Part shown: positions 18,057 through 31,550 of the stretch, piece by piece | Position numbering within the stretch: the stretch's first letter is position 1 | Layout of the letters: the number at the start of each line of letters is the position of its first letter | NCBI GenBank assembly: GCA_021399345.1 | Contig: JAAFKI010000127.1 | Location: 1 to 39,719, forward strand | Origin: Candidatus Heimdallarchaeota archaeon | GTDB lineage: Archaea; Asgardarchaeota; Heimdallarchaeia; Heimdallarchaeales; Heimdallarchaeaceae | Length of the DNA stretch: 39,719 nucleotides | Direction: 5' to 3' | The notes under the pieces: generated by a model | The model's database searches: none | Seen by the model: the letters and a program-made list of their open reading frames with translations, nothing else | Told to the model about the DNA's origin: nothing | Translations under genes and position numbers: made by a program

Positions 18057-20837
18057 ATGCGTGAAGGATTGACTTTTGATGATGTACTTTTAGTACCAAA
18101 ACACTCCTCTGTTACATCTAGAAAAGATGTTGAAACCTCTACTTATCTTTCTCGAAATATAAAATTAAATGTACCCATTGTAAGTTCTAACATGGATACA
18201 GTAACAGAAAGTAAGATGGCTATAGTTATGGCCCAGATGGGAGCTATTGGAATCATTCATCGTTTTATGTCTGTTGAGGATCATGTTTCTGAAGTAACTA
18301 AGGTTAAACGTTCAGAAATGATTAGAATAGATCACCCTTATCGTTTAAAACCTGAAAACACTTTAGACGATGCTAGAGCTATGATGGAAGACAAAGGGAT
18401 TTCTGGAATTCTGGTCACAGATCCCTCTGATAAACTAGTAGGTATTCTTACAACTCGAGATATTATGTTTGAAGAAGATGGGGTAACTAAAATCTCTGAT
18501 TTAATGTCAACTGATCTGGTTACTGCTGCTCCTGATATAACAATTGAATCAGCTAAGGATTATCTTCAAAAGAGTAGAATAGAAAAATTACCTCTAATAG
18601 ATGAAAAAGGGTTTCTAAAAGGTTTAATCACTTCTAAAGATATTATAAAAAGTAAAGTCTTGCCTGATTCTTCTAAAGATTCTAAAGGACGATTACTAGT
18701 TGCAGCTGCTATAGGTGTTCGTGGAGATTATCTGCAACGAGCTGAAAAACTTGTCAATGCTGATGCTGATGCTCTAGTTATTGATATAGCTCATGGGCAT
18801 TCAGATTTGGCTATTAATACTGTCAAAGCTATACGAAAGAATTTTAGTGATATAGAGATTATTGCGGGTAATGTGGCTACTAGTGAGGGAACAAAAGCTC
18901 TCATTGAAGCTGGTTGTGATGCAGTTAAAGTAGGTGTGGGACCTGGAAGTATTTGTCTCGAGGGTGACACTCTAATTACTATGTCAGATTATTCAGTTAA
19001 GAGAATCAAAGATGTAGTACCAGGAGACATAGTAGTTACTCATAGAAATAACAAGCGTTCAGTTACAAAGAAATATACCCGGAAATTTAGTGGGGAAATT
19101 TACCATATTAACATCAAAGGTTCTCCTGGAAATATAAAAATCACCTCAGAGCATCCAATTTTAGCAATTTCCTTCGATTCTGATGAAGAGAAGATAAAGA
19201 AGTTCGGTTCTAAATATTATTTTGATAAAAAGAAACATAATCTAGGCTTAGAATGGCTTGAAGCTTCATCACTTAAACGTGGAGATTTGGTTGTTGTTCC
19301 TAGGACTATAGCAAGAAAAACAAAGAAACTTCAATTTGACTTGACCGATTATGTTAACTGTTTGTTTGATAATAGAAAAGTGTGGTCAAACAAAGTAGGA
19401 TTCAACCCAAACAAAGAATCTTTTATAGATTTAGCTATCCGTTTTTCAACAACAAAAAGAATTATAGGCAATATAGTTAAAGGTGGTAAGTCTCAAGATA
19501 TGATTTTAAACCAAGAAGTTAATGAATATCTTGATTCAGTTGATTATCAGAGAACAATAGATCCACTAATTATCAATCGTTATATAGAATTAAATGAAGA
19601 TTTAATGAGATTATTTGGATATTTTATTGCTGAAGGTTATGTTATTGGAGCAAAAAACAACAGACAACTAGTTTTTGGTTTTTCAAAAGATGAAACTGAT
19701 TATCATAATGATGTAAAAACTTTAGTTAAGAAAACCTTTGGATATGCTAATACAAAAGTTAGATATCATAAAACTAAAAATTCAGCAGAAGTTAGAGTTT
19801 ATTCTCATTATATTGCCTCTTTCTTTGAAAGAATCTTTCCTTTAGGTTCAAAAAACAAGAAATTTCCAAGTTTTATTTTTGAACAAGAAAATTATCTTTT
19901 GATTGATTTAATTAAAGGAGCCTTTTATGGAGATGGAAGCATTAGTGAAAAAAGAAAAGCAACATACAAAACTGTATCTGCATCTCTTGCTTTTCAAATG
20001 TCTGAGATTCTTATTCGCTTAGGATTTCTACCAACTATTTCAAAAGAGAAGAAAAGAGAAGAGAAATGGTCAGATATTTACAAAATCATTATTTCAGGTT
20101 CCCAATATGATAGATTTATGGATACATTTTATCCAAGTGAGGAGTATCTGAAAGTGACCAAATCTGCTCAGCAAATTTGGGCTGATGAGTCATATATCTA
20201 TCTGAAAGTTCATTCTGTTGAAAAAGAAAACAAGGAAACATTCGTCTATAATCTGGAAGTAGATGAAGACAATTCGTATTTGACTAACAGAATAGCAGTT
20301 CATAATTGCATTACAAGAATAGTTACTGGTAGCGGTGTTCCTCAATTAACAGCCATTATGGATTGTGCTAAAGCTGCTAAAGACTTTGATGTTCCTATCA
20401 TCGCTGACGGCGGTGTACGCAACTCAGGAGATTTGACTAAGGCTATTGCAGCAGGAGCTTCAACTGTCATGATTGGTGGTCTTTTCGCTGGAACAGAAGA
20501 GAGTCCTGGAACTACCATTTTGAGATCTGGAAGAAGCTATAAAGTCGTTCGAGGAATGGCAAGTTTGGGCGCTACTTTAGGAAGAGAAGCTAGAGAGAAA
20601 AAAGGTTCTTTCGATGAGCTAGATATGGGGAGTGTAGTTCCTGAAGGAGTAGAAGCTGTTGTACCTTATCGTGGATCAGCAGCAGATGTTCTTGAACAAC
20701 TTGTTGGAGGACTCAGAAGTGGTATCTCTTATTGTGGTGCAACTAACCTCAAAGCGATGCAAGCTAATGCTGAGTTTATCAAAATAACAACTGCTGGACG
20801 TGCAGAGTCAGCTTCACATGATGTTGAGCGTATATAA
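18057..20837 (+). CDS. guaB: IMP dehydrogenase with CBS pair, interrupted by an intein
   Basis: [31 protein letters not shown]|CITR, ADGG, RGMAS, VPEGVE; exteins total 475 aa. Confidence 0.97.
18954..20306 (+). mobile_element. Intein (451 aa) with LAGLIDADG homing endonuclease
   Basis: Starts CLEGDT, block B ITSEHPIL, endonuclease motifs LFGYFIAEG and IKGAFYGDG, ends VYNLEV...AVHN followed by extein Cys. Confidence 0.95.
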
Positions 20838-22464: not shown

Positions 22465-23916
22465 ATGATGAGCCTTCAAGTAGTTGTTGAAATCTGCAAT
22501 CCTAATGAATGTCAGCATGAATGTGTGTCAGTTTGTCCTCAAAATAAAAAAGGAAAAATTGCAATCAAAGTTGAAAAAACAGTAGCTGAAATGAACAAAA
22601 GTAATTGTATAAATTGTTTACAATGTGTCTATGCTTGTCCTTTTGATGCCATAGAAGTTGTTCTGAAAAACAAGAATAAAATTACTAAGGAAACACTCCA
22701 GTCTAAAGATAAAGAAAGACAAAGAAAAAAAGACAAGAAAGTGTTTGAGATAAATGAAGATGTTTATGAGCCTTTCAACGAAAAATATACCATTTTCAGT
22801 CGTAGAATGTGGGATGAGGAGTATGAAGGATTCAAGAAGCCTATTTTTGGAAAAGCAAAAGAACGAATTGAAATTGGTTTAGATGGCTACTCTGAAATTG
22901 AATTAGCTGCAGTCGATGCTGCTTGGTCAATTGAAAATCTTGTAGGTATGCATGAATTTCAGAAGGAAAGACCAAAGACATTGGATGAAGAAAACAAAAA
23001 GAAACTTGAAGAACAGAAGGATAAAACCAAAGTTAAACAGGTCAATTATGACGTTCAAGAACCACAGCAATACAAAGTTGAAGATCCCGAAGAGATGTCC
23101 AAATGGTTGAAGAAAGTTTCCAAATTCTATGGAGCAAATCTGATAGGTGTAGCAAAGTTTGATCCGAAGTGGATTTACACTCACGATAGAATGGATAGAG
23201 CATATGTAATTCCTGAAAAAATAAAAAATGTCATAGTCATAGTAGTTGAAATGGATCTAGATGCAATTAATACATCTCCAAAGATGCCTGGTGGAATAGC
23301 TACAGGACTTGGGTATTCTAAAATAGCTTTTGTAAGAACACTAGTATCAAGCTTCATCAAGAATTTAGGTTATGAAGCAATCCCTGCTGGAAATGCTCTA
23401 GGTCTGTCTGTTCCATTAGCTGTTGAAGCAGGACTTGGAGGATACGGTCGTCATGGTTTGTTAATAACAAAGGAATATGGACCTAGAGTGAGAGTTGCAA
23501 AAATACTAACAGATATGCCTCTAGTAGCTGACAAACCTAGTTATCGTTTTGCTAAGTCAGTTGAACGTTTCTGTGAAACATGTATGACCTGTGCTGAGAA
23601 ATGCCCAAGTGCATCAATTTCCTTTGATAAAAAAACATCCTATAAAACACATAGTATAAGCAATAATCCTGGAGTGAAGAAATGGTATGTCAATGTAGAC
23701 ACTTGTTATATGTTTTGGATAGAAAATGGTGGAGATTGCAGTGTGTGTATATCTGATTGTGAGTATAACCATAAACCAAGCTGGCCTCATAAAGTAGCTA
23801 ATTGGATAGTTATGAATATGCCTATATTCAATCCTATATGGCCTTATGTTGGGAGATTGTTAGGTTATGGTGGTAATAAGTCTGCTAAGAAATTCTGGAA
23901 GAAAATTAAGGTTTAA
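22465..23916 (+). CDS. Reductive dehalogenase (RdhA)-family cobalamin/Fe-S protein with N-terminal RLI-type ferredoxin domain
   Basis: LGYEAIP, SVPLAVEAGLGGYGRHGLLIT..YGPRVR..KILTDMPL, FCETCMTCAEKCP, GVKKW, CSVCISDC; N-terminal CX4CX3CX3CP and CX2CX2CX3CP. Confidence 0.85.
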   Translation: MMSLQVVVEICNPNECQHECVSVCPQNKKGKIAIKVEKTVAEMNKSNCINCLQCVYACPFDAIEVVLKNKNKITKETLQSKDKERQRKKDKKVFEINEDVYEPFNEKYTIFSRRMWDEEYEGFKKPIFGKAKERIEIGLDGYSEIELAAVDAAWSIENLVGMHEFQKERPKTLDEENKKKLEEQKDKTKVKQVNYDVQEPQQYKVEDPEEMSKWLKKVSKFYGANLIGVAKFDPKWIYTHDRMDRAYVIPEKIKNVIVIVVEMDLDAINTSPKMPGGIATGLGYSKIAFVRTLVSSFIKNLGYEAIPAGNALGLSVPLAVEAGLGGYGRHGLLITKEYGPRVRVAKILTDMPLVADKPSYRFAKSVERFCETCMTCAEKCPSASISFDKKTSYKTHSISNNPGVKKWYVNVDTCYMFWIENGGDCSVCISDCEYNHKPSWPHKVANWIVMNMPIFNPIWPYVGRLLGYGGNKSAKKFWKKIKV

Positions 23917-23948: not shown

Positions 23949-25058
23949 TTAGATTTTTTCCATCAACGCAGTTTCGATTGTCATTCCTGGACCAAAAGAC
24001 GTTGCAAATAAGAGACCTTTTTTCTCTTCGTCTTTCAAAATACGTTCCAGCACAAACATTATTGTAGCTGAGCTCATATTTCCATACTCTCTCATAATAT
24101 GATATGAAGCATCAAGATCCTCAGGAGTTAAATCTAAGGCTAGTTCAGCTTTGGTCAGAATAGCTTTTCCACCCGGATGAATGGCCCATATTTTTATGTC
24201 ATCTTTTATTTTGTTTGATTTCTTTAAGAGATCTTCCAAAATACTTACTAGGTTATGTTGAACCACTTTAGGTACATTTAAGGTCAGTTTCATACCAAAT
24301 CCAGTATCACCTATATTCCAAGCCATATCTTCTTCTGTGCCTGGTACAATGTCTGTAGCAAAATCACGTAAAACAAATTTACTTCCTTCGCAGTCATTTT
24401 CATCACTAGAAACTAGAGCAGCTGAAATGCCATCAGCAAAAATAGCATTGGCAATAACTTGGTCCAATTCGAATGATTGTTGTAAATGAATTGAACATAA
24501 TTCAACATTAACAATCAAGACTCTTGCTTTAGAATCAGAAAGACAAATATTCTTAGCTAACTTCAAGGCATTGATAGCTGCTTGACATCCCATAAAACCG
24601 AGGATATATCTATCTATTTTCGGGTTCAATTCGAAGTCTTTAACAATGTAATAGTCAAGTCCTGGAGCATCAAAGCCAGTACAAGAAACTGTTATAACAT
24701 GAGAGATTTTACTCTTATCAAATCTAGGATTTGAATTAAATAATTTTTCAACTGCTAGCTTTCCCAACCTAAGTGATTCCTTTGCAAATAGGTCATTTCT
24801 TTGCTTAGTTGTGGGTTCAGGTCTGAGAGTTTTATTTTTTGGATAGAAAGTAAATTCGCTAGGATCTTTTCCATAATCATCAATAACTGTATGTCGTTTT
24901 ATGATACCAGTTCCTTTGTAGACTTTGTTAAGAAAAACTTTTTTGTAGGTTGTATCTGCGACTATCTTTTTCATATATTTTAAGGCAAATTTCTGTGTGT
25001 AGAATTTCTCAGGAACTACTGTAGCTATTGAATGGAGATAGACATTATTTTCTTTCAA
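23949..25058 (-). CDS. Type III polyketide synthase (chalcone/stilbene synthase family)
   Basis: VSCTG, GFMGCQAA (catalytic Cys), ELCSIH, AIFADG, WAIHPGG (His), YGNMSS (Asn), FGPG. Confidence 0.93.
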   Translation of the reverse strand: MKENNVYLHSIATVVPEKFYTQKFALKYMKKIVADTTYKKVFLNKVYKGTGIIKRHTVIDDYGKDPSEFTFYPKNKTLRPEPTTKQRNDLFAKESLRLGKLAVEKLFNSNPRFDKSKISHVITVSCTGFDAPGLDYYIVKDFELNPKIDRYILGFMGCQAAINALKLAKNICLSDSKARVLIVNVELCSIHLQQSFELDQVIANAIFADGISAALVSSDENDCEGSKFVLRDFATDIVPGTEEDMAWNIGDTGFGMKLTLNVPKVVQHNLVSILEDLLKKSNKIKDDIKIWAIHPGGKAILTKAELALDLTPEDLDASYHIMREYGNMSSATIMFVLERILKDEEKKGLLFATSFGPGMTIETALMEKI

Positions 25059-25176
25059 AAGAATTCTTCCTTTCGCATTTTCTCAGGTTTATTAAAACTT
25101 GATTGAGTTCAACATAATTCTTCTAGTACTGCATTTATACTTTCTTATCCGGTTTGGATTAAGAGTTTCTGCATTA

Positions 25177-26040
25177 TTATCCAAAGAAATCTGCTAGTTT
25201 CTGTTGACCTTTGAATGTAGTTTTTTTAGGCTCAATAGGAATAAGATTTTTTTCTGCAAGTATTTCCTTGAATTTTCTTGCTGCTGGGGGGGCGAATCCC
25301 GAGAAATGGTTGTTAATGAAAACATATCCAGTACTTTTGTTTGTGTTTTTAGAATACGCATCAGCCAGTTGGTCTACAGTTTTTTCCATGTAATCTGTTC
25401 TATCTTTTAGCTCTTTACCAAGTCCTATTGTCTGTTTATGAGAACCTATTATTCTTAGATAGAAATAATCTTTCTTTACTTCCTCAAAGAGATTAAATTT
25501 GATATAGGGCAGATATGAACTGACAATACCTATATCTTTCTCATTAAGAAGATCGTATGTATCTTCATTATACCAGCTGTTATGTCGAAATTCTATCACT
25601 AGTTGATAATCTGAGTGTGGGAAGAATGATATAAAATCAAAAATCTGATCTCTTGTTGAAGCATTTTTTTCAAAACTAGGTTTTAGTTGCATAACAAGAG
25701 GTCCAAGTTTCTTTTTCAAAGGATTCATGATGAGTAGAAACGATTTGAGATTCTGCTCAACAACTGATAGATTATCAGCTTGGCAAATCGATTTGGGGAT
25801 TTTTGCAGTTAAAACAAAATCGTCAGGTAAAGATTTGTTCCATCTAGCTGTTGTTTCTAATTTGGGAAAAGCATAGAAGGTAGAATTAACCTCACAAGTT
25901 GTAAATTGAGTAGAATAAAACTCTAAGAGAGCATATTTGTCTATCTTCGCAGGATAAAAACCTCCAAGATTGGATTTCCAGTCTTCATAGTTAAAACCGG
26001 TACATCCTACATGTATTTTTATATCCTGCATTTTACTCAA
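25177..26040 (-). CDS. DUF72 (YecE-like) protein
   Basis: VGCTGFNYEDW, FYP, EVNSTFY, LGPLVMQ, IEFRHNSW, YLRIIG, FINNH. Confidence 0.9.
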   Translation of the reverse strand: MSKMQDIKIHVGCTGFNYEDWKSNLGGFYPAKIDKYALLEFYSTQFTTCEVNSTFYAFPKLETTARWNKSLPDDFVLTAKIPKSICQADNLSVVEQNLKSFLLIMNPLKKKLGPLVMQLKPSFEKNASTRDQIFDFISFFPHSDYQLVIEFRHNSWYNEDTYDLLNEKDIGIVSSYLPYIKFNLFEEVKKDYFYLRIIGSHKQTIGLGKELKDRTDYMEKTVDQLADAYSKNTNKSTGYVFINNHFSGFAPPAARKFKEILAEKNLIPIEPKKTTFKGQQKLADFFG

Positions 26041-26346: not shown

Positions 26347-28590
26347 ATGTTTACTATCAAATCAGCACAAGAAAACAGAAAACCAATTTTTCTAGTTACA
26401 ATGATTTTTTGTATATTCATTTTATCTTCCTCTGTAAATTTGAATGAAGTAGTTGGAGAATTGAGCATAACTGATCTTCGAATTCCATTGGTTTTTAAAA
26501 CACACTCCGGAGGAGTAAGACCTGATATAGGTTATTACATTGCTGAACAGTTAAGTGAAATTAATATTGGTTTAGAAGTAATAATAGAAGAATGGATTGT
26601 TTTTGAAAATACAATCCTTGTGACAAATGATTTTGATTTAGCTTATGTTACAATAAGTGGAGGTGGGGCGTCTCCAGACATGAGAGATGTTTATACGAAA
26701 GATGGGAGACTTAATATTTTTGGATTAAACAAAAATATTCCTTATGGAAATATGTCTGAAGAAATGCAAAACTATGGTGTAACGATAGTTGACCCAAATG
26801 CAAGACAACAGCTGTATTATGATTGGGAACAAATGTTTATGGATAAAATAGTACCTATGCTTCCTTTCTTTTCTCAAAGAAACTATGTTGGTTTGTGGGC
26901 AAACACCCAGGGATATGATGCTAGATGGGGATTATCTGATTCACTACCCTATATGAGCTATATTGGGTTACATCAAGGTCAACAAAGCTTAGATGAACTC
27001 AACATTGCTAGTCATAAATGGTTAGAGCTAAATCCTTTGTACTCCAATGAGTTAGTATGGGATCTTTCATCAGAACCAATTGTTCAATATAGCCCAGATT
27101 ATGCCCCTCTAAAATCAGGTCTTGTATATGACTGGGAACAAATTGATGAATCTCATTATCAGTTCTGGATGCATGATGATTTGTACTGGAATCCATCTTA
27201 TGATACAAGAGATAGAACTGCTAGTTCTGGTCCTTTAAGTTCAGTTTCTACTGGAAATTTGTTAACAGGATTGAAGTATGGGGAATATAGTAATGGTATT
27301 AATCAACAAGTTACCGCTAAAGATGCTGTTTTCACGTATCTTGCTTGGGCTAATGGATATGTGAGTGTTGATACAGGATATCATTCTTGGATCTCAAATA
27401 TTTATGTTGATCCTGTTAATGATTTATCGTTTCACATACATATAGATGGAAATCCAAACACTCCTGAAATTGAAAGTTATGCTGATTTTTGGACTAAATT
27501 GCCTTGGGATATTTTACCTGAATTCTATCTAAATTCAACTAGCTCAACAGTTTCTTACACTTCAGGTGGAGTAAGATGTAAGGGTCTATATTCAGGAATC
27601 TATCTAACTCCAGAATGGTCAGCATATAGTGAAAGTGCTTTTGGTTGTGGTAAGTATATGCTTGATTATTCAACTTCTGAAGTTACTGTATTACGTAGAA
27701 GCCCTTACTGGTTTGGAAAAGGAGCGATTGATGGGATGACAGGGGAAGTTCCATTTGTTGATACCATCAATATTGCTCATATACCTACAGGAGAAAGAAT
27801 TGGTGAATTTAAGCTAGGGTCTTTGGATATTGTTGATTTAACTGCTGAACCAACTACAAGAAAACAACTACAAGCTGACCCAAAATTCTCTGTTCAATCC
27901 TTTCTAGCAGACAGTATGAGTTTTCTAGCTTTTAATCTAAATAGACCTTTCATTGGTGGTGTTAATAACTTTCAATACTTGAATGAGCCTGGTAAAGAAG
28001 AGTATACAAAAGGCATTGGTATAAGAAAAGCTATCTGTTATGCTATTGATAGAGATGAAATTAATGCAGTTCTTTTTGATGGTGAGAACATGATAAGTCA
28101 CTGTCCAATTTATCCTAGTAGTGCATACTATTATTACCATGATATAATTAAATATAATCATGATTTAGATGCATCTAGAGAATGGCTACATGCATGTAAT
28201 ATTCAAATACCAAAATTAAAACTCACAGTAGAAAACCATGATAAAGTTGGTGAGAAGATCATTTTTCAAGCAGATTATGATACAGGTGTAACTGTTACAA
28301 GTTCAGAACTTTATTATTCTGTTAATGGATTCGTCAAACCTAAAATTACAATGCTTGAGGAGAAAGATAATTACTTTACTAGTAATATAGGTTCATCCTA
28401 TCAAGAAGAAACCTTGGTTGAGTTTTATATTCAAGCGACAAATGGTCTTGGAGACAAATTTGTAACAGCATTAATTACGTTCAGTGTAGGAACGAAGAAT
28501 AAAGCACTAGCCAGTTTTCCATTAGTCTCATTAGTAGTACTCTTAGTTATTCCGGTAATTTTCAGAGTCAGAAAAAAGAAAATGAATTAG
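26347..28590 (+). CDS. Family 5 (OppA/DppA-like) solute-binding protein, apparently circularly permuted, C-terminal TM anchor
   Basis: VTAKDAVFTY, FGCGKY, LAFNLNRP, IRKAICYAIDR; signal peptide; C-terminal TM + RKKK. Confidence 0.8.
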   Translation: MFTIKSAQENRKPIFLVTMIFCIFILSSSVNLNEVVGELSITDLRIPLVFKTHSGGVRPDIGYYIAEQLSEINIGLEVIIEEWIVFENTILVTNDFDLAYVTISGGGASPDMRDVYTKDGRLNIFGLNKNIPYGNMSEEMQNYGVTIVDPNARQQLYYDWEQMFMDKIVPMLPFFSQRNYVGLWANTQGYDARWGLSDSLPYMSYIGLHQGQQSLDELNIASHKWLELNPLYSNELVWDLSSEPIVQYSPDYAPLKSGLVYDWEQIDESHYQFWMHDDLYWNPSYDTRDRTASSGPLSSVSTGNLLTGLKYGEYSNGINQQVTAKDAVFTYLAWANGYVSVDTGYHSWISNIYVDPVNDLSFHIHIDGNPNTPEIESYADFWTKLPWDILPEFYLNSTSSTVSYTSGGVRCKGLYSGIYLTPEWSAYSESAFGCGKYMLDYSTSEVTVLRRSPYWFGKGAIDGMTGEVPFVDTINIAHIPTGERIGEFKLGSLDIVDLTAEPTTRKQLQADPKFSVQSFLADSMSFLAFNLNRPFIGGVNNFQYLNEPGKEEYTKGIGIRKAICYAIDRDEINAVLFDGENMISHCPIYPSSAYYYYHDIIKYNHDLDASREWLHACNIQIPKLKLTVENHDKVGEKIIFQADYDTGVTVTSSELYYSVNGFVKPKITMLEEKDNYFTSNIGSSYQEETLVEFYIQATNGLGDKFVTALITFSVGTKNKALASFPLVSLVVLLVIPVIFRVRKKKMN

Positions 28591-28692
28591 TTTGACACTA
28601 ATTCTTCCTTTTTTTTCGAGAATAATTAGGAAGAGACTTCACAATATTTTTAACACAAACTTTTAGAATTACATGTTAATTTCTTTTTATCC

Positions 28693-30072
28693 ATGACTGA
28701 TTCTGATTCTTCTATAGATTTACTAGAACCTTTACCATTAGGTGATTCTATAGATGACACAGATCATGAAATTGAAAGAGCTGAGGAAATAGCTCTTTAC
28801 TCTCGTTCTATCGCTACTAATGTGTCCAATGGTCTTGTAAGTCCTTTTGTCTCTTTTATTTCGTTAAATTTAGGTGCATCAGCTGGAATCTTGGGTTGGA
28901 TTCAAGCAATAGCTAACCTTCTAAGACAATTTTTGGACCCTTTTTTTGGACGCCTTTCAGATATGGTTAGAAGAAGAATTCCTTTCATAGTTATTTCAAC
29001 TATCACTTGGATTATTCCTTATGCTTTTCTTTATTGGGTTAAGGCCCCTGAATTTGTTATTCTCATTGTAGCAATTGTTAACATCCTGTTAAGTTTAGGT
29101 AACCCAGCTTGGAATGCTTTACAGAATGAACTTTTTCCAAGAGAGGTTAGAGGTAAACTTACTGGTCGCGTTTTCTGGTTTGGATCATTTGGCAGTATGG
29201 TTGCTACTCTTTTTACAGGAGTAATACTTACTTTTGCTTTTGGAGAAAACATCGAATATCAGAAGTATATTCTTATCCCTGTTGGTCTAGGCGTTTTGAT
29301 TTCTATTATAGCAGTACTTCCTTTCAGAAAGATAGAAGAGCCATTAAGAAGGGAAGGAGTGCAATTTGAAAAAACTGATGGAAATTTGAAAGATGGAATC
29401 AAAGAAATTTTTAGGAATAAACCTTTCAGAAAATTTATGCTCCTATATTCAATCTTTGGACTTTTTTGGACTTTTTCTTGGCCATTATTTAGTCTTAAAC
29501 AGATTAATATTTTGAATGCAACAGCTGTTGAAGTTGCTTTGCTAGAGATAATTTTCGCTGTGACTTCCATTCTGTTTATTTTATTGGGAGCTAAAATAGC
29601 TGATAAGTTTGGAAGAACAAAGCTCATCATCCTTAATCGTATGATTTTGTTTCTCTTCCCTCTTGGGTATATTTTTGCTACTAAAATCTGGCATCTTTAT
29701 TTGGTACACTTCTTTATTGCAAGTATTTTCAATCTAAGTTTTGCTGGAGTGAATGCTTACATATTAGACATGATACCTAGAAAAAATGGTGGGTTATATT
29801 TTGGTGTTCTGGGTTTGGTTACAGGAGTATTTTACTTCATAGGAACTCTATTAGGAGGATATATGGTCCAAGTTCTAGAAAATTGGTATTCGCAAGAAGT
29901 TTCTCTTACCATAGCTCTTGCCTTTGTTACTGTTATGAGATTCATATTAGGTTTCATATTCCTTTCATTGAAGGAAGTGAAGCTATTTCCTTCATCCTAT
30001 AGAGAATTACCACATTATGCTTTATCGAGTTTTGCAAATCTAGTGAGAAAGCCATTTAGAGGAAAGAAATAA
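28693..30072 (+). CDS. MFS transporter
   Basis: About 12 TM helices, GRLSDMVRRR and GAKIADKFGR motif A copies. Confidence 0.92.
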   Translation: MTDSDSSIDLLEPLPLGDSIDDTDHEIERAEEIALYSRSIATNVSNGLVSPFVSFISLNLGASAGILGWIQAIANLLRQFLDPFFGRLSDMVRRRIPFIVISTITWIIPYAFLYWVKAPEFVILIVAIVNILLSLGNPAWNALQNELFPREVRGKLTGRVFWFGSFGSMVATLFTGVILTFAFGENIEYQKYILIPVGLGVLISIIAVLPFRKIEEPLRREGVQFEKTDGNLKDGIKEIFRNKPFRKFMLLYSIFGLFWTFSWPLFSLKQINILNATAVEVALLEIIFAVTSILFILLGAKIADKFGRTKLIILNRMILFLFPLGYIFATKIWHLYLVHFFIASIFNLSFAGVNAYILDMIPRKNGGLYFGVLGLVTGVFYFIGTLLGGYMVQVLENWYSQEVSLTIALAFVTVMRFILGFIFLSLKEVKLFPSSYRELPHYALSSFANLVRKPFRGKK

Positions 30073-30089
30073 TTATTTTTAAATTTCAG

Positions 30090-31550
30090 ATAGAGGTTGC
30101 GTGTTCCTTCAGTTCAATTTATGATGAGTTTTTGTCATGCGGGCATAGTAACCAAACATGGTTGAGCATATTTTTTAGACGATGTGGGTTTCATTCCTTG
30201 TGGGTCTACACACACTCTATGTGGATACATCACGTATCCTCCTACCCCGTTCACTTTACGTTGAGGTAAAGCTTTCGGATCGCTTTTGACCAGAATATTA
30301 TACGCAGCATTGACATCTGCATTGATCTTGTGTCCTTGAGAAGAGGTGAACAATCCTCTGGAGGAGCGTTTGCCAGCATATGCCGTCCGTTTTTGAGGAG
30401 ATTCATTATCTAAGAAACTGCTTTTGGATGTATATTCTTCAGGAATAAGATCGACATGTATCCCTTGTTCCTCACCTTTGTATCTCAATTGATTGATAAT
30501 CTGCATGAAAGGTATTGTGACAAACATTTGCGTGACTTTTTTTCCTAAATTCACCTGTTGTTTCCACATGGGATTATACCCAATGATTACTTCTTGTAGG
30601 TCTCGTTCCAACCACAAATCAACCAAGTATTTGGTTAGATGGTGGAGAGCATTCTTGAGTTTCTTTCTAAATTTTTCCCGAAGATGATGATATGCTTGAC
30701 CATAGATTAGTTTTTGCTGTTGCTTCAATTGCTTTCTCTGCTGCTGGACATATTGTTCTCTTAACTTTGTCTGGATTTTCAAATAATACTGAATGATACT
30801 TTTGATTCCTTTTCCGTGATCCTTGATAACAATTGGTTGATTGCCAAGGTTATCAACAAAGGTCACGAGGTTAATACTCCCTAAATCGATCGCCCCTTTT
30901 CTGATAAGTTTCTTTCTCTGTTTTGGAAGAAGTTTCTCATAGACTAGCTCGAGTGTGTATCCTACTCTTCTTGGGATGATTCTCACTTCTTTAAGTCGAG
31001 TGCTAGCTGTCAAGCGAGTTTTGTAGTAAAAGCCTACTTTTTTAGGAAGGATTAACCATCCTTTCCTTATCTTGGCTTGTTGGTTGGAGAATATCGCTAC
31101 CACCTCCCCGTCTTTGGCTTTGTATCTTGGTGAGTTGGGTTCAGCAAAGAACCTTTGTGGGTTCTTTTCCCACTCTTTTTTTGCTTGAAAATACCCTTTC
31201 CAGTTCCTACAAAGAAGTTTGAGAGTGTGTTGTGCTGTATGAGCAGGAAGGTTTCGATAACATTCTTCTTCCTTGAGTAAAGTGTTCAAGTCATAATATT
31301 GAAGTAGTCTTTCTTTGTTGTTCAACGTTTGTTTTACCAGAAAGTTTGCTCGATTATAGAGATTTTTGACTTGATGACAGAGCTTGCTCAGTGTTGGGTA
31401 AAAAGGAAGTTCTATACATTCCACTCTTAGCACTTTTGTCATCATTTTTCTCCTTGGACTTTGCTATAAAAACTCCTGTAATATCTTACTTTCAGTTAAC
31501 TCTTGACCTGATTCACAATACGTTTAATGTGACTACAACTACATGGCAAA
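30090..31550 (-). mobile_element. IS1341-like tnpB-only element; ends approximate
   Basis: tnpB without tnpA between the MFS gene and lat; appears more GC-rich than its flanks; hairpin ggatac-N5-gtatcc near the 3' end; exact termini not identified. Confidence 0.6.
30135..31445 (-). CDS. tnpB: TnpB RNA-guided endonuclease (IS200/IS605 superfamily)
   Basis: KNLYNRANF, GAIDLG (RuvC-I), IIGY and EEYTSK (rearranged RuvC-II), NADVNAAYNI (RuvC-III). Confidence 0.92.
   Translation of the reverse strand: MMTKVLRVECIELPFYPTLSKLCHQVKNLYNRANFLVKQTLNNKERLLQYYDLNTLLKEEECYRNLPAHTAQHTLKLLCRNWKGYFQAKKEWEKNPQRFFAEPNSPRYKAKDGEVVAIFSNQQAKIRKGWLILPKKVGFYYKTRLTASTRLKEVRIIPRRVGYTLELVYEKLLPKQRKKLIRKGAIDLGSINLVTFVDNLGNQPIVIKDHGKGIKSIIQYYLKIQTKLREQYVQQQRKQLKQQQKLIYGQAYHHLREKFRKKLKNALHHLTKYLVDLWLERDLQEVIIGYNPMWKQQVNLGKKVTQMFVTIPFMQIINQLRYKGEEQGIHVDLIPEEYTSKSSFLDNESPQKRTAYAGKRSSRGLFTSSQGHKINADVNAAYNILVKSDPKALPQRKVNGVGGYVMYPHRVCVDPQGMKPTSSKKYAQPCLVTMPA

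Follow-up and report, generated by a model that had tools for sequence, protein, structure and literature searches.

An intact type III polyketide synthase of probable bacterial origin, without its operon partner, in Heimdall-group Asgard archaea

Introduction

The closest described counterparts of the gene considered here are the phenolic-lipid operons SrsA-SrsB-SrsC of Streptomyces griseus, BpsA-BpsB of Bacillus subtilis, CepA-CepB of 'Entotheonella' and DquA-DquB of Sporomusaceae, together with the planctomycetal alkylresorcinol clusters. Two further type III polyketide synthase (PKS) systems serve as points of reference, namely PKS18 of M. tuberculosis (1TED), a long-chain alkylpyrone synthase, and the Ars system of Azotobacter vinelandii, in which the type I fatty acid synthase (FAS) ArsA/ArsD feeds the type III PKSs ArsB and ArsC. 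In PKS18 the residues Thr144, Cys205 and Ala209 belong to the long-chain acyl tunnel, while the site of Leu266, which corresponds to Trp281 in ArsB and Gly284 in ArsC, is the main determinant of resorcinol versus pyrone formation (PMC7064976). Here we analyse a type III PKS gene on contig JAAFKI010000127.1 of a Candidatus Heimdallarchaeota archaeon (GCA_021399345.1). The window, i.e. the whole stretch of DNA that was analysed, is this entire 39.7-kb contig (39,719 nucleotides), which belongs to a 3.27-Mb metagenome-assembled genome (MAG) of 199 contigs with 88.6% completeness and 2.8% contamination.

A Thorarchaeota type III PKS homologue was mentioned in passing in 2024 (PMC11093982), and surveys of biosynthetic gene clusters list PKSs for Asgardarchaeota without detail. 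The literature search returned such passing mentions only, and neither a characterisation nor a dedicated analysis of the context, origin or partner loss of an Asgard type III PKS. The informative features of the gene are a traceable bacterial origin, the loss of an operon partner and the presence/absence variation among close relatives. The reading that we favour, to which we give as a whole a probability of roughly 60%, is that the gene encodes a native and functional Asgard PKS, that it came from a Spirochaetota-like donor, that the partner gene was not kept and that the product is a phenolic lipid.

Enzyme class and active site

The open reading frame (ORF) at positions 23949-25058 of the reverse strand is uninterrupted over 369 codons and begins with TTG, upstream of which the frame stays open for only eight codons, back to a TGA, with no ATG, GTG or TTG among them. 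The protein scores 102.7 bits with Pfam Chal_sti_synt_C and 86.4 bits with Chal_sti_synt_N (cut-off 27 for both), whereas the FabH domains ACP_syn_III and ACP_syn_III_C match more weakly, with 26.7 and 35.7 bits. Among the NCBIfam models the best FabH model reaches 42.7 bits against a cut-off of 249, so that an identity as FabH or HMG-CoA synthase, the grouping that the original prediction had named as speaking against itself, is rejected on family scores. The top NCBIfam match is DpgA (3,5-dihydroxyphenylacetyl-CoA synthase) with 147.6 bits, and membership of this family is rejected as well, since the score is far under the equivalog cut-off of 425. The top matches in a sequence search of the PDB are all type III PKSs (E ~1e-44). 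An AlphaFold2 model built from a 20-sequence alignment (pLDDT 91.7, pTM 0.93) matches the thiolase alpha-beta-alpha-beta-alpha fold of solved type III PKSs, and the structures listed at ranks 1-50 by Foldseek with this model are all type III PKSs (TM 0.85-0.91), the closest being Ectocarpus PKS1 (4b0n), M. marinum PKS (7cb3) and M. tuberculosis PKS18 (1ted) at TM ~0.9. Identity to plant enzymes is only ~25-31%. Domain, family, sequence and fold matches thus agree with the prediction of an intact type III PKS, and the assignment of the ORF to this class is virtually certain.

The catalytic triad that had been read from the sequence is borne out by alignment to solved enzymes and consists of Cys158 (in GFMGC), which corresponds to Cys175 of PKS18, and of His294 (IHPGG) and Asn327 (GNMSS), which occupy the triad positions of 7FFC. 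The same holds for the gatekeeper Phe (Phe215 of chalcone synthase, CHS), which is Phe207 in the motif AIFADG, and for the G-F-G-P-G loop, represented by F355-G-P-G358. The triad, Phe207 and the FGPG residues are invariant in all 60 sequences of the Asgard clade and in all 82 Spirochaete-type relatives. In another set of 225 bacterial relatives they are kept in more than 97% of cases, the triad alone in at least 224 of the 225. The second gatekeeper, CHS Phe265, presumably corresponds to Met256, and we take CHS T197 and G256 to be His191 and Trp247; these three pairs follow CHS numbering and are given as leads only.

Host and bacterial origin

The contig is neither bacterial nor chimeric, but genuinely from a Heimdall-group Asgard archaeon, because gene order is conserved within the genus, GC content is uniform and an Arf-like GTPase is encoded on the same contig. 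The latter shares 95% identity with a protein labelled 'Candidatus Heimdallarchaeota', and its other top named relatives are from Heimdallarchaeaceae and Ca. Heimdallarchaeum aukensis. For orthologues of this GTPase and for the PKS orthologues P0006 and P0007, the contigs are recorded at 143,306 and 125,360 bp in both cases. The apparent Asgard host of the original prediction is therefore upheld, and its concern that the contig might be chimeric or bacterial is countered by synteny, GTPase and GC content alike.

Three trees were computed, with FastTree (355 sequences), with IQ-TREE in a quick run (105 sequences) and with IQ-TREE in a careful run under LG+C20 PMSF (62 sequences); they include neither eukaryotic sequences nor the characterised SrsA, BpsA, ArsB/C and CHS, and they are rooted by assumption on other bacterial phyla. 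In all three the Asgard-labelled copies form one clade, with support values of 96 (FastTree), 94 (quick IQ-TREE) and 100/99 (careful IQ-TREE), the last of these clades taking in three unlabelled short contigs. A series of successive branches leads up to this clade, and each labelled sequence among them either comes from Spirochaetota or lies on a contig with bacterial markers, such as Mfd beside P0078, or a SPOR-domain protein and a cytochrome bd oxidase by P0058. The bacterial label is paraphyletic in 200 of 200 bootstrap trees, and constraining the labelled bacteria to one clade costs 23.4 log-likelihood units (approximately unbiased (AU) test, p = 0.043). The acquisition from bacteria that had been predicted thus fits the nesting of the Asgard clade among Spirochaetota-type sequences, with a marginal AU test, and a native Asgard gene of bacterial origin is very probable. 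The simplest reading of these sequences would be a single transfer from a Spirochaete-like donor to Asgard archaea, followed by patchy inheritance.

Absence of the methyltransferase partner

On the bacterial sister contigs the stop codon of the PKS gene overlaps the start of a gene for a class-I S-adenosylmethionine (SAM) methyltransferase (Methyltransf_11/25). When this methyltransferase was used in tblastn searches, a homologue was found directly downstream of the PKS gene in 10 of 13 Spirochaetota loci (L123-L135), and a methyltransferase gene also lies directly 3' of the PKS gene in L044, L045, L137 and L154. The same arrangement is seen in most of the listed loci at ~40% identity, which come from Bacteroidota, Balneolota, Deinococcota, Actinomycetota and Verrucomicrobiota. 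By contrast, tblastn found no homologue beside the PKS gene in the Asgard loci fetched (L002-L043 and the window), and no credible match came from the rest of the window's genome, which is 88.6% complete. P0043, the nearest outgroup in which the methyltransferase is retained, forms the branch next to the 100/99 clade. Since the bacterial relatives almost always carry the methyltransferase, the partnerless state of the Asgard gene is derived. Two of the bacterial loci, L137 (1967-5815) and L154, look Srs-like in that genes for a FAD monooxygenase and a UbiE-type methyltransferase are divergent from the PKS gene, while the start of a second methyltransferase gene overlaps the PKS stop.

Predicted product

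The N-terminal 262 residues find their best sequence match in PKS18 (E 8e-24, ~27% identity), and the alignment is free of gaps across residues 111-213, where most of the residues compared in Table 1 are located. No variation is seen at the PKS18-type tunnel residues or at Trp247, either here or throughout the bacterial clade. As Trp247 occupies the site of ArsB Trp281, it points to alkylresorcinols. A long-chain alkylresorcinol or alkylpyrone, i.e. a phenolic-lipid product, is predicted from the sequence with somewhat better than even odds.

Malonyl-CoA supply is plausible, since the same genome (G000) encodes on contig C147 an AccC-type biotin carboxylase, BCCP, a 525-aa PccB/MmdA-type carboxyltransferase and BirA. 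The acetyl-CoA carboxylase that the original prediction proposed to look for thus has a counterpart in biotin-dependent acyl-CoA carboxylase genes, for which acetyl-CoA specificity is putative. These genes flank a 3357-aa FAS-like megasynthase with the domain order ER-KS-AT-KS-ACP-KR-DH-PPTase, the biotin carboxylase and BCCP on one side, the carboxyltransferase and BirA on the other (L029:2930-18211). The genome also has two AMP-binding ligases and an acyl-CoA dehydrogenase.

The megasynthase occurs in 71 of 400 Asgard genomes, including 26 of the 30 in the window's family, whether the PKS is present or not, but in none of the 89 genomes of the Thor-like group that holds the second PKS-carrying family (f31). 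An obligate link between PKS and megasynthase is therefore unsupported, and because f31 carriers lack the megasynthase, fatty-acyl supply from it is no general requirement, although it could feed the PKS in the window's genome. All five f31 carriers inspected for the carboxyltransferase have it (5/5). In the five genomes of one f31 genus (g78) the PKS gene is followed by co-oriented genes for a four-subunit 2-oxoacid:ferredoxin oxidoreductase, which is possibly a source of acyl-CoA starters, or could reflect coincidental synteny of close relatives. Its subunits are encoded in the order gamma, delta, alpha, beta on the same strand (L036:9456-12494, with equivalents in L037, L038, L040 and L041).

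Proposed mechanism and its alternatives

The ancestor of the Asgard PKS clade would have received the gene from a Spirochaetota-like bacterium with a two-gene PKS-methyltransferase operon, of which the Asgard genomes have only the synthase. In the window's genus its place is fixed, between the DUF72 and reductive-dehalogenase (RDH)-like genes; it has probably been lost cleanly in some species, and the copies that remain are under strong purifying selection. By analogy with solved type III PKSs, the enzyme, of thiolase fold and presumably homodimeric, would load an acyl starter on Cys158. The likeliest starters are fatty acyl-CoAs of medium or long chain length, or else acyl chains supplied by the FAS-like megasynthase. 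Two or three malonyl-CoA units, which the genome's biotin-dependent acyl-CoA carboxylase may provide, would then be added by decarboxylative condensation via His294 and Asn327. Cyclisation would yield a 5-alkylresorcinol, beside or instead of which alkylpyrones may form, and because the partner methyltransferase is missing the product would be left unmethylated. The starter, the number of extensions, the cyclisation mode and the physiological role are all proposed here by analogy. A more specific and quite unlikely version would be an Ars-like arrangement, in which the PKS, a self-activating FAS-like megasynthase and a dedicated carboxylase jointly produce unmethylated long-chain alkylresorcinols in the cell envelope.

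With respect to host and origin, a bacterial or chimeric contig that was misbinned into an Asgard MAG is hardly credible. The 199 contigs and the estimated contamination of 2.8% would allow for it, and the closest non-Asgard relatives of the enzyme are bacterial (50-60% identity), but an Arf-like GTPase whose best matches are from Heimdallarchaeota is encoded on the PKS contig, six independently assembled genomes of the genus repeat the gene order on contigs of up to 143 kb, PKS-negative congeners have identical flanks, GC content is uniform across the region, and the Asgard copies make a clade of their own, which largely refutes this explanation. The reverse direction of transfer has been suggested on the basis of a tree rooted on the Thorarchaeota homologue, with Asgard archaea as the point of emergence of type III PKSs, from where the family spread to bacteria and eukaryotes (PMC11093982). 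The monophyly of the Asgard copies and their occurrence in two main lineages (f1 and f31), to which a third family adds one fragmentary match, would be in line with it, yet this origin is very improbable, given that the Asgard clade is late and shallow within successive bacterial branches that keep the PKS-methyltransferase operon, that the gene is found in only 22 of 400 Asgard genomes, and that identity is ~25-31% to plant enzymes as compared to 50-60% to Spirochaetota; these points are to be read with eukaryote-free trees, an assumed root and an AU p value of 0.043.

For the chemistry, the alternative to a phenolic lipid is a short-chain or aromatic PKS that uses acetyl-, branched-chain, arylacetyl- or malonyl-CoA as starter and makes small pyrones, phloroglucinol-like or dihydroxyphenylacetate-like compounds. 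DpgA as the best NCBIfam match (147.6 bits) would agree with this, but its score is far below the 425-bit cut-off, and while the oxidoreductase encoded after the PKS gene in the second lineage makes short, branched or aryl acyl-CoAs, this adjacency is limited to one group of closely related genomes. The second lineage is also without the FAS-like megasynthase, and archaea are not known for long-chain acyl-CoA pools, which counts for short starters. Against them stand the invariant tunnel residues and Trp247, the occurrence of the bacterial clade in Srs/Bps-like phenolic-lipid operons and the presence of users of long acyl chains among the closest solved structures, so that a short-chain or aromatic product is considered unlikely.

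Several points weigh against the phenolic-lipid and Spirochaetota-donor reading. The product assignment is a gene-based prediction, and DquA, which has the same Trp, yields pyrones only (PMC9827899). Position 192 is Ile, Leu or Met in the Asgard sequences but mostly Phe or Tyr in their bacterial relatives, which may mean that the preferred starter has changed. Since the carboxyltransferase most resembles the MmdA/PccB type, its acetyl-CoA specificity is putative, and the second PKS lineage has no megasynthase (0/89). As for the origin, rejection of the alternative topology is marginal (p 0.043), the group subjected to the AU test was defined after the tree had been seen, and the donor phylum is named from MAG labels, with many unlabelled metagenomic sequences in the trees.

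Genomic locus and presence/absence in the genus

The only co-oriented neighbour of the PKS gene is the upstream DUF72 gene, while the downstream gene is convergent (Table 1), which confirms that no tailoring methyltransferase or oxidoreductase gene is co-oriented next to it, as had been predicted. The region between DUF72 and PKS probably contains a promoter of the PKS gene's own, as judged from the TATA-like elements gtataaatgc and ttttaataaa, which precede the TTG by ~70 nt and ~30 nt; directly before the start lies the purine-rich sequence aaggaag. GC content is ~0.34 throughout the gene and its flanks.

Table 1. Features at the PKS locus of the window (nucleotide positions) and residues of the PKS compared with PKS18 (residue numbers)
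Feature	Position	Strand	Remarks
Type III PKS	23949..25058	-	Tunnel-type Thr127/Cys188/Leu192; Trp247 at the cyclisation-determinant site
118-bp intergenic region	25059..25176	-	Upstream of PKS; sequence read directly
DUF72 (YecE-like TIM barrel)	25177..26040	-	Pfam DUF72 166.8 bits; co-oriented, upstream of PKS
RDH-family Fe-S protein	22465..23916	+	TIGR02486 209 bits; convergent with PKS, 32-bp gap
TnpB	30135-31445		5 kb from PKS, not adjacent
PKS Thr127	127		PKS18 Thr144; alignment to 1TED
PKS Cys158	158		PKS18 Cys175; alignment to 1TED
PKS Cys188	188		PKS18 Cys205; column confirmed by the 1TEE C205F mutant
PKS Leu192	192		PKS18 Ala209; alignment to 1TED
PKS Trp247	247		PKS18 Leu266; alignment to 1TED

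Six genomes of the genus share a common order, in which aminotransferase, FTCD-N and FTCD-C genes lie on the side of the DUF72 and PKS genes, which are in the same direction and face the RDH-like, MBL and IMP dehydrogenase (IMPDH) genes. Four congeners (G018, G026, G023 and G037) have no PKS match, and their DUF72 and RDH-like genes abut at 16-21 bp. In these PKS-negative congeners the entire 1.26-kb segment 23917-25176 is missing while the flanks are kept, with flanking genes of G018 and G026 that are 90-95% identical to those of the window. The RDH-like gene is thus the other edge of the presence/absence site, opposite DUF72, and the abutting flanks in four congeners indicate that the PKS gene is a dispensable single-gene accessory. 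Where it is present, it is kept by purifying selection, as pairwise comparisons with the window gene within the genus give dN/dS values of 0.08-0.11 (dS 0.18 to ~1.9). Selection maintains the gene, which has diverged along with the genus, and repeated loss is the likelier explanation of its patchy presence.

DUF72 is rejected as a tailoring enzyme, since it is retained unchanged in PKS-negative congeners and its fold, which is akin to that of UV-damage endonuclease (PMC11791011), points to DNA repair. A tailoring role of the RDH-like and MBL proteins is likewise unsupported, as their genes are convergent with the PKS gene, form a run with IMPDH and persist without the PKS; indeed, the IMPDH-MBL-RDH run is conserved across the genus irrespective of the PKS. 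The RDH-like protein, encoded by the last gene of this run, has an extra N-terminal ferredoxin-like domain. The IMPDH gene of the window (18057-20837; 926 aa) contains an intein with a LAGLIDADG homing endonuclease; the orthologues in G026 and G037 are full-length, those in G032, G019, G022 and G023 intein-free with ~480 aa.

The original prediction saw no obvious mobile context, which holds insofar as no mobile gene is adjacent to the PKS gene, but not for the wider locus, where TnpB is encoded 5 kb away. TnpB is unlikely to have been the vehicle of the PKS gene, given this distance and its absence from the presence/absence junction; the four congener loci examined (L149-L152) lack it as well. 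The stretch 26347-31445 beside the PKS site is variable: in the window it encodes a 747-aa family-5 solute-binding protein and TnpB between the DUF72 and aminotransferase genes, both are missing at that position in several congeners, and an MFS transporter is common to the window and to G018, G026 and G022.

Distribution and prior records

The original prediction called the enzymes rarely described in archaea. This agrees with the lack of a characterised case in the literature searched, and is refined by their occurrence in ~5% of the Asgard genomes (22/400) and their existing database annotation. Carriers in the window's genus are the window's genome and 10 of 24 others; the remaining matches come from one more genus of the same family (f1), from nine genomes of f31, whose public homologues are labelled Thorarchaeota, and from the third family, with its single fragmentary match. 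Among sampled Spirochaetota, 13 of 401 genomes have a match, at best with 58-60% identity, so that the best copies of this phylum are as close to the window protein as the second Asgard lineage is. The labelled Spirochaetota copies came from a separate scan of that phylum, whereas among the matches listed in a broad contig search most were bacterial loci at ~40% identity and few were from Asgard archaea or Spirochaetes. The NCBI records of the Asgard group, Hodarchaeota and Thorarchaeota are already named 'type III polyketide synthase', and NPD88980.1 ('Asgard group archaeon'), MFX0108833.1 ('Candidatus Hodarchaeota'), the Thorarchaeota entries and the Thorarchaeota homologue of PMC11093982 belong to the same clade, with 59-83% identity to the window PKS.

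Significance and comparison with known systems

The enzyme itself is of an expected kind and carries its database label already. It would nevertheless make a first archaeal polyketide easy to reach, as a lone gene of 1.1 kb for which no partner is required suits heterologous expression. One acquisition, a dropped partner, long vertical persistence under selection and repeated loss make up a case that is cleaner than most claims of horizontal transfer, and the result runs against the published suggestion of an Asgard cradle for type III PKSs. A megasynthase with its own malonyl-CoA supply in the same genome raises the question of Heimdall phenolic lipids. Should the Ars-like arrangement hold, phenolic lipids of the bacterial kind would belong to the membranes of some strains but not of others among the prokaryotes most closely related to eukaryotes.

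The Heimdall PKS shares the enzyme family and the active-site set with the Srs, Bps, Cep and Dqu systems, and Trp at the resorcinol-determinant site with ArsB and CepA. The Spirochaetota-type relatives resemble the Srs and Bps operons further, in that a methyltransferase and sometimes a FAD monooxygenase follow the PKS, although their partner is a class-I SAM methyltransferase (Methyltransf_11/25), whereas BpsB and DquB are of the ICMT type. Unlike these systems, the Asgard PKS has an archaeal host and stands alone, with no methyltransferase or monooxygenase beside it or detectable in the window's genome. With the Ars system the Heimdall genome has in common a FAS-like megasynthase, here with its own carboxylase genes, and a PKS with the ArsB-type Trp; this likeness is known from the genes, and differs in that PKS and megasynthase are on separate contigs and that PKS carriers of the Thor-like lineage lack a megasynthase. 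In comparison to PKS18, Thr144 and Cys205 are kept as Thr127 and Cys188, while Leu266 and Ala209 are replaced by Trp247 and Leu192, so that ring closure by aldol (resorcinol) instead of lactone formation is predicted, together with a tunnel of different shape.

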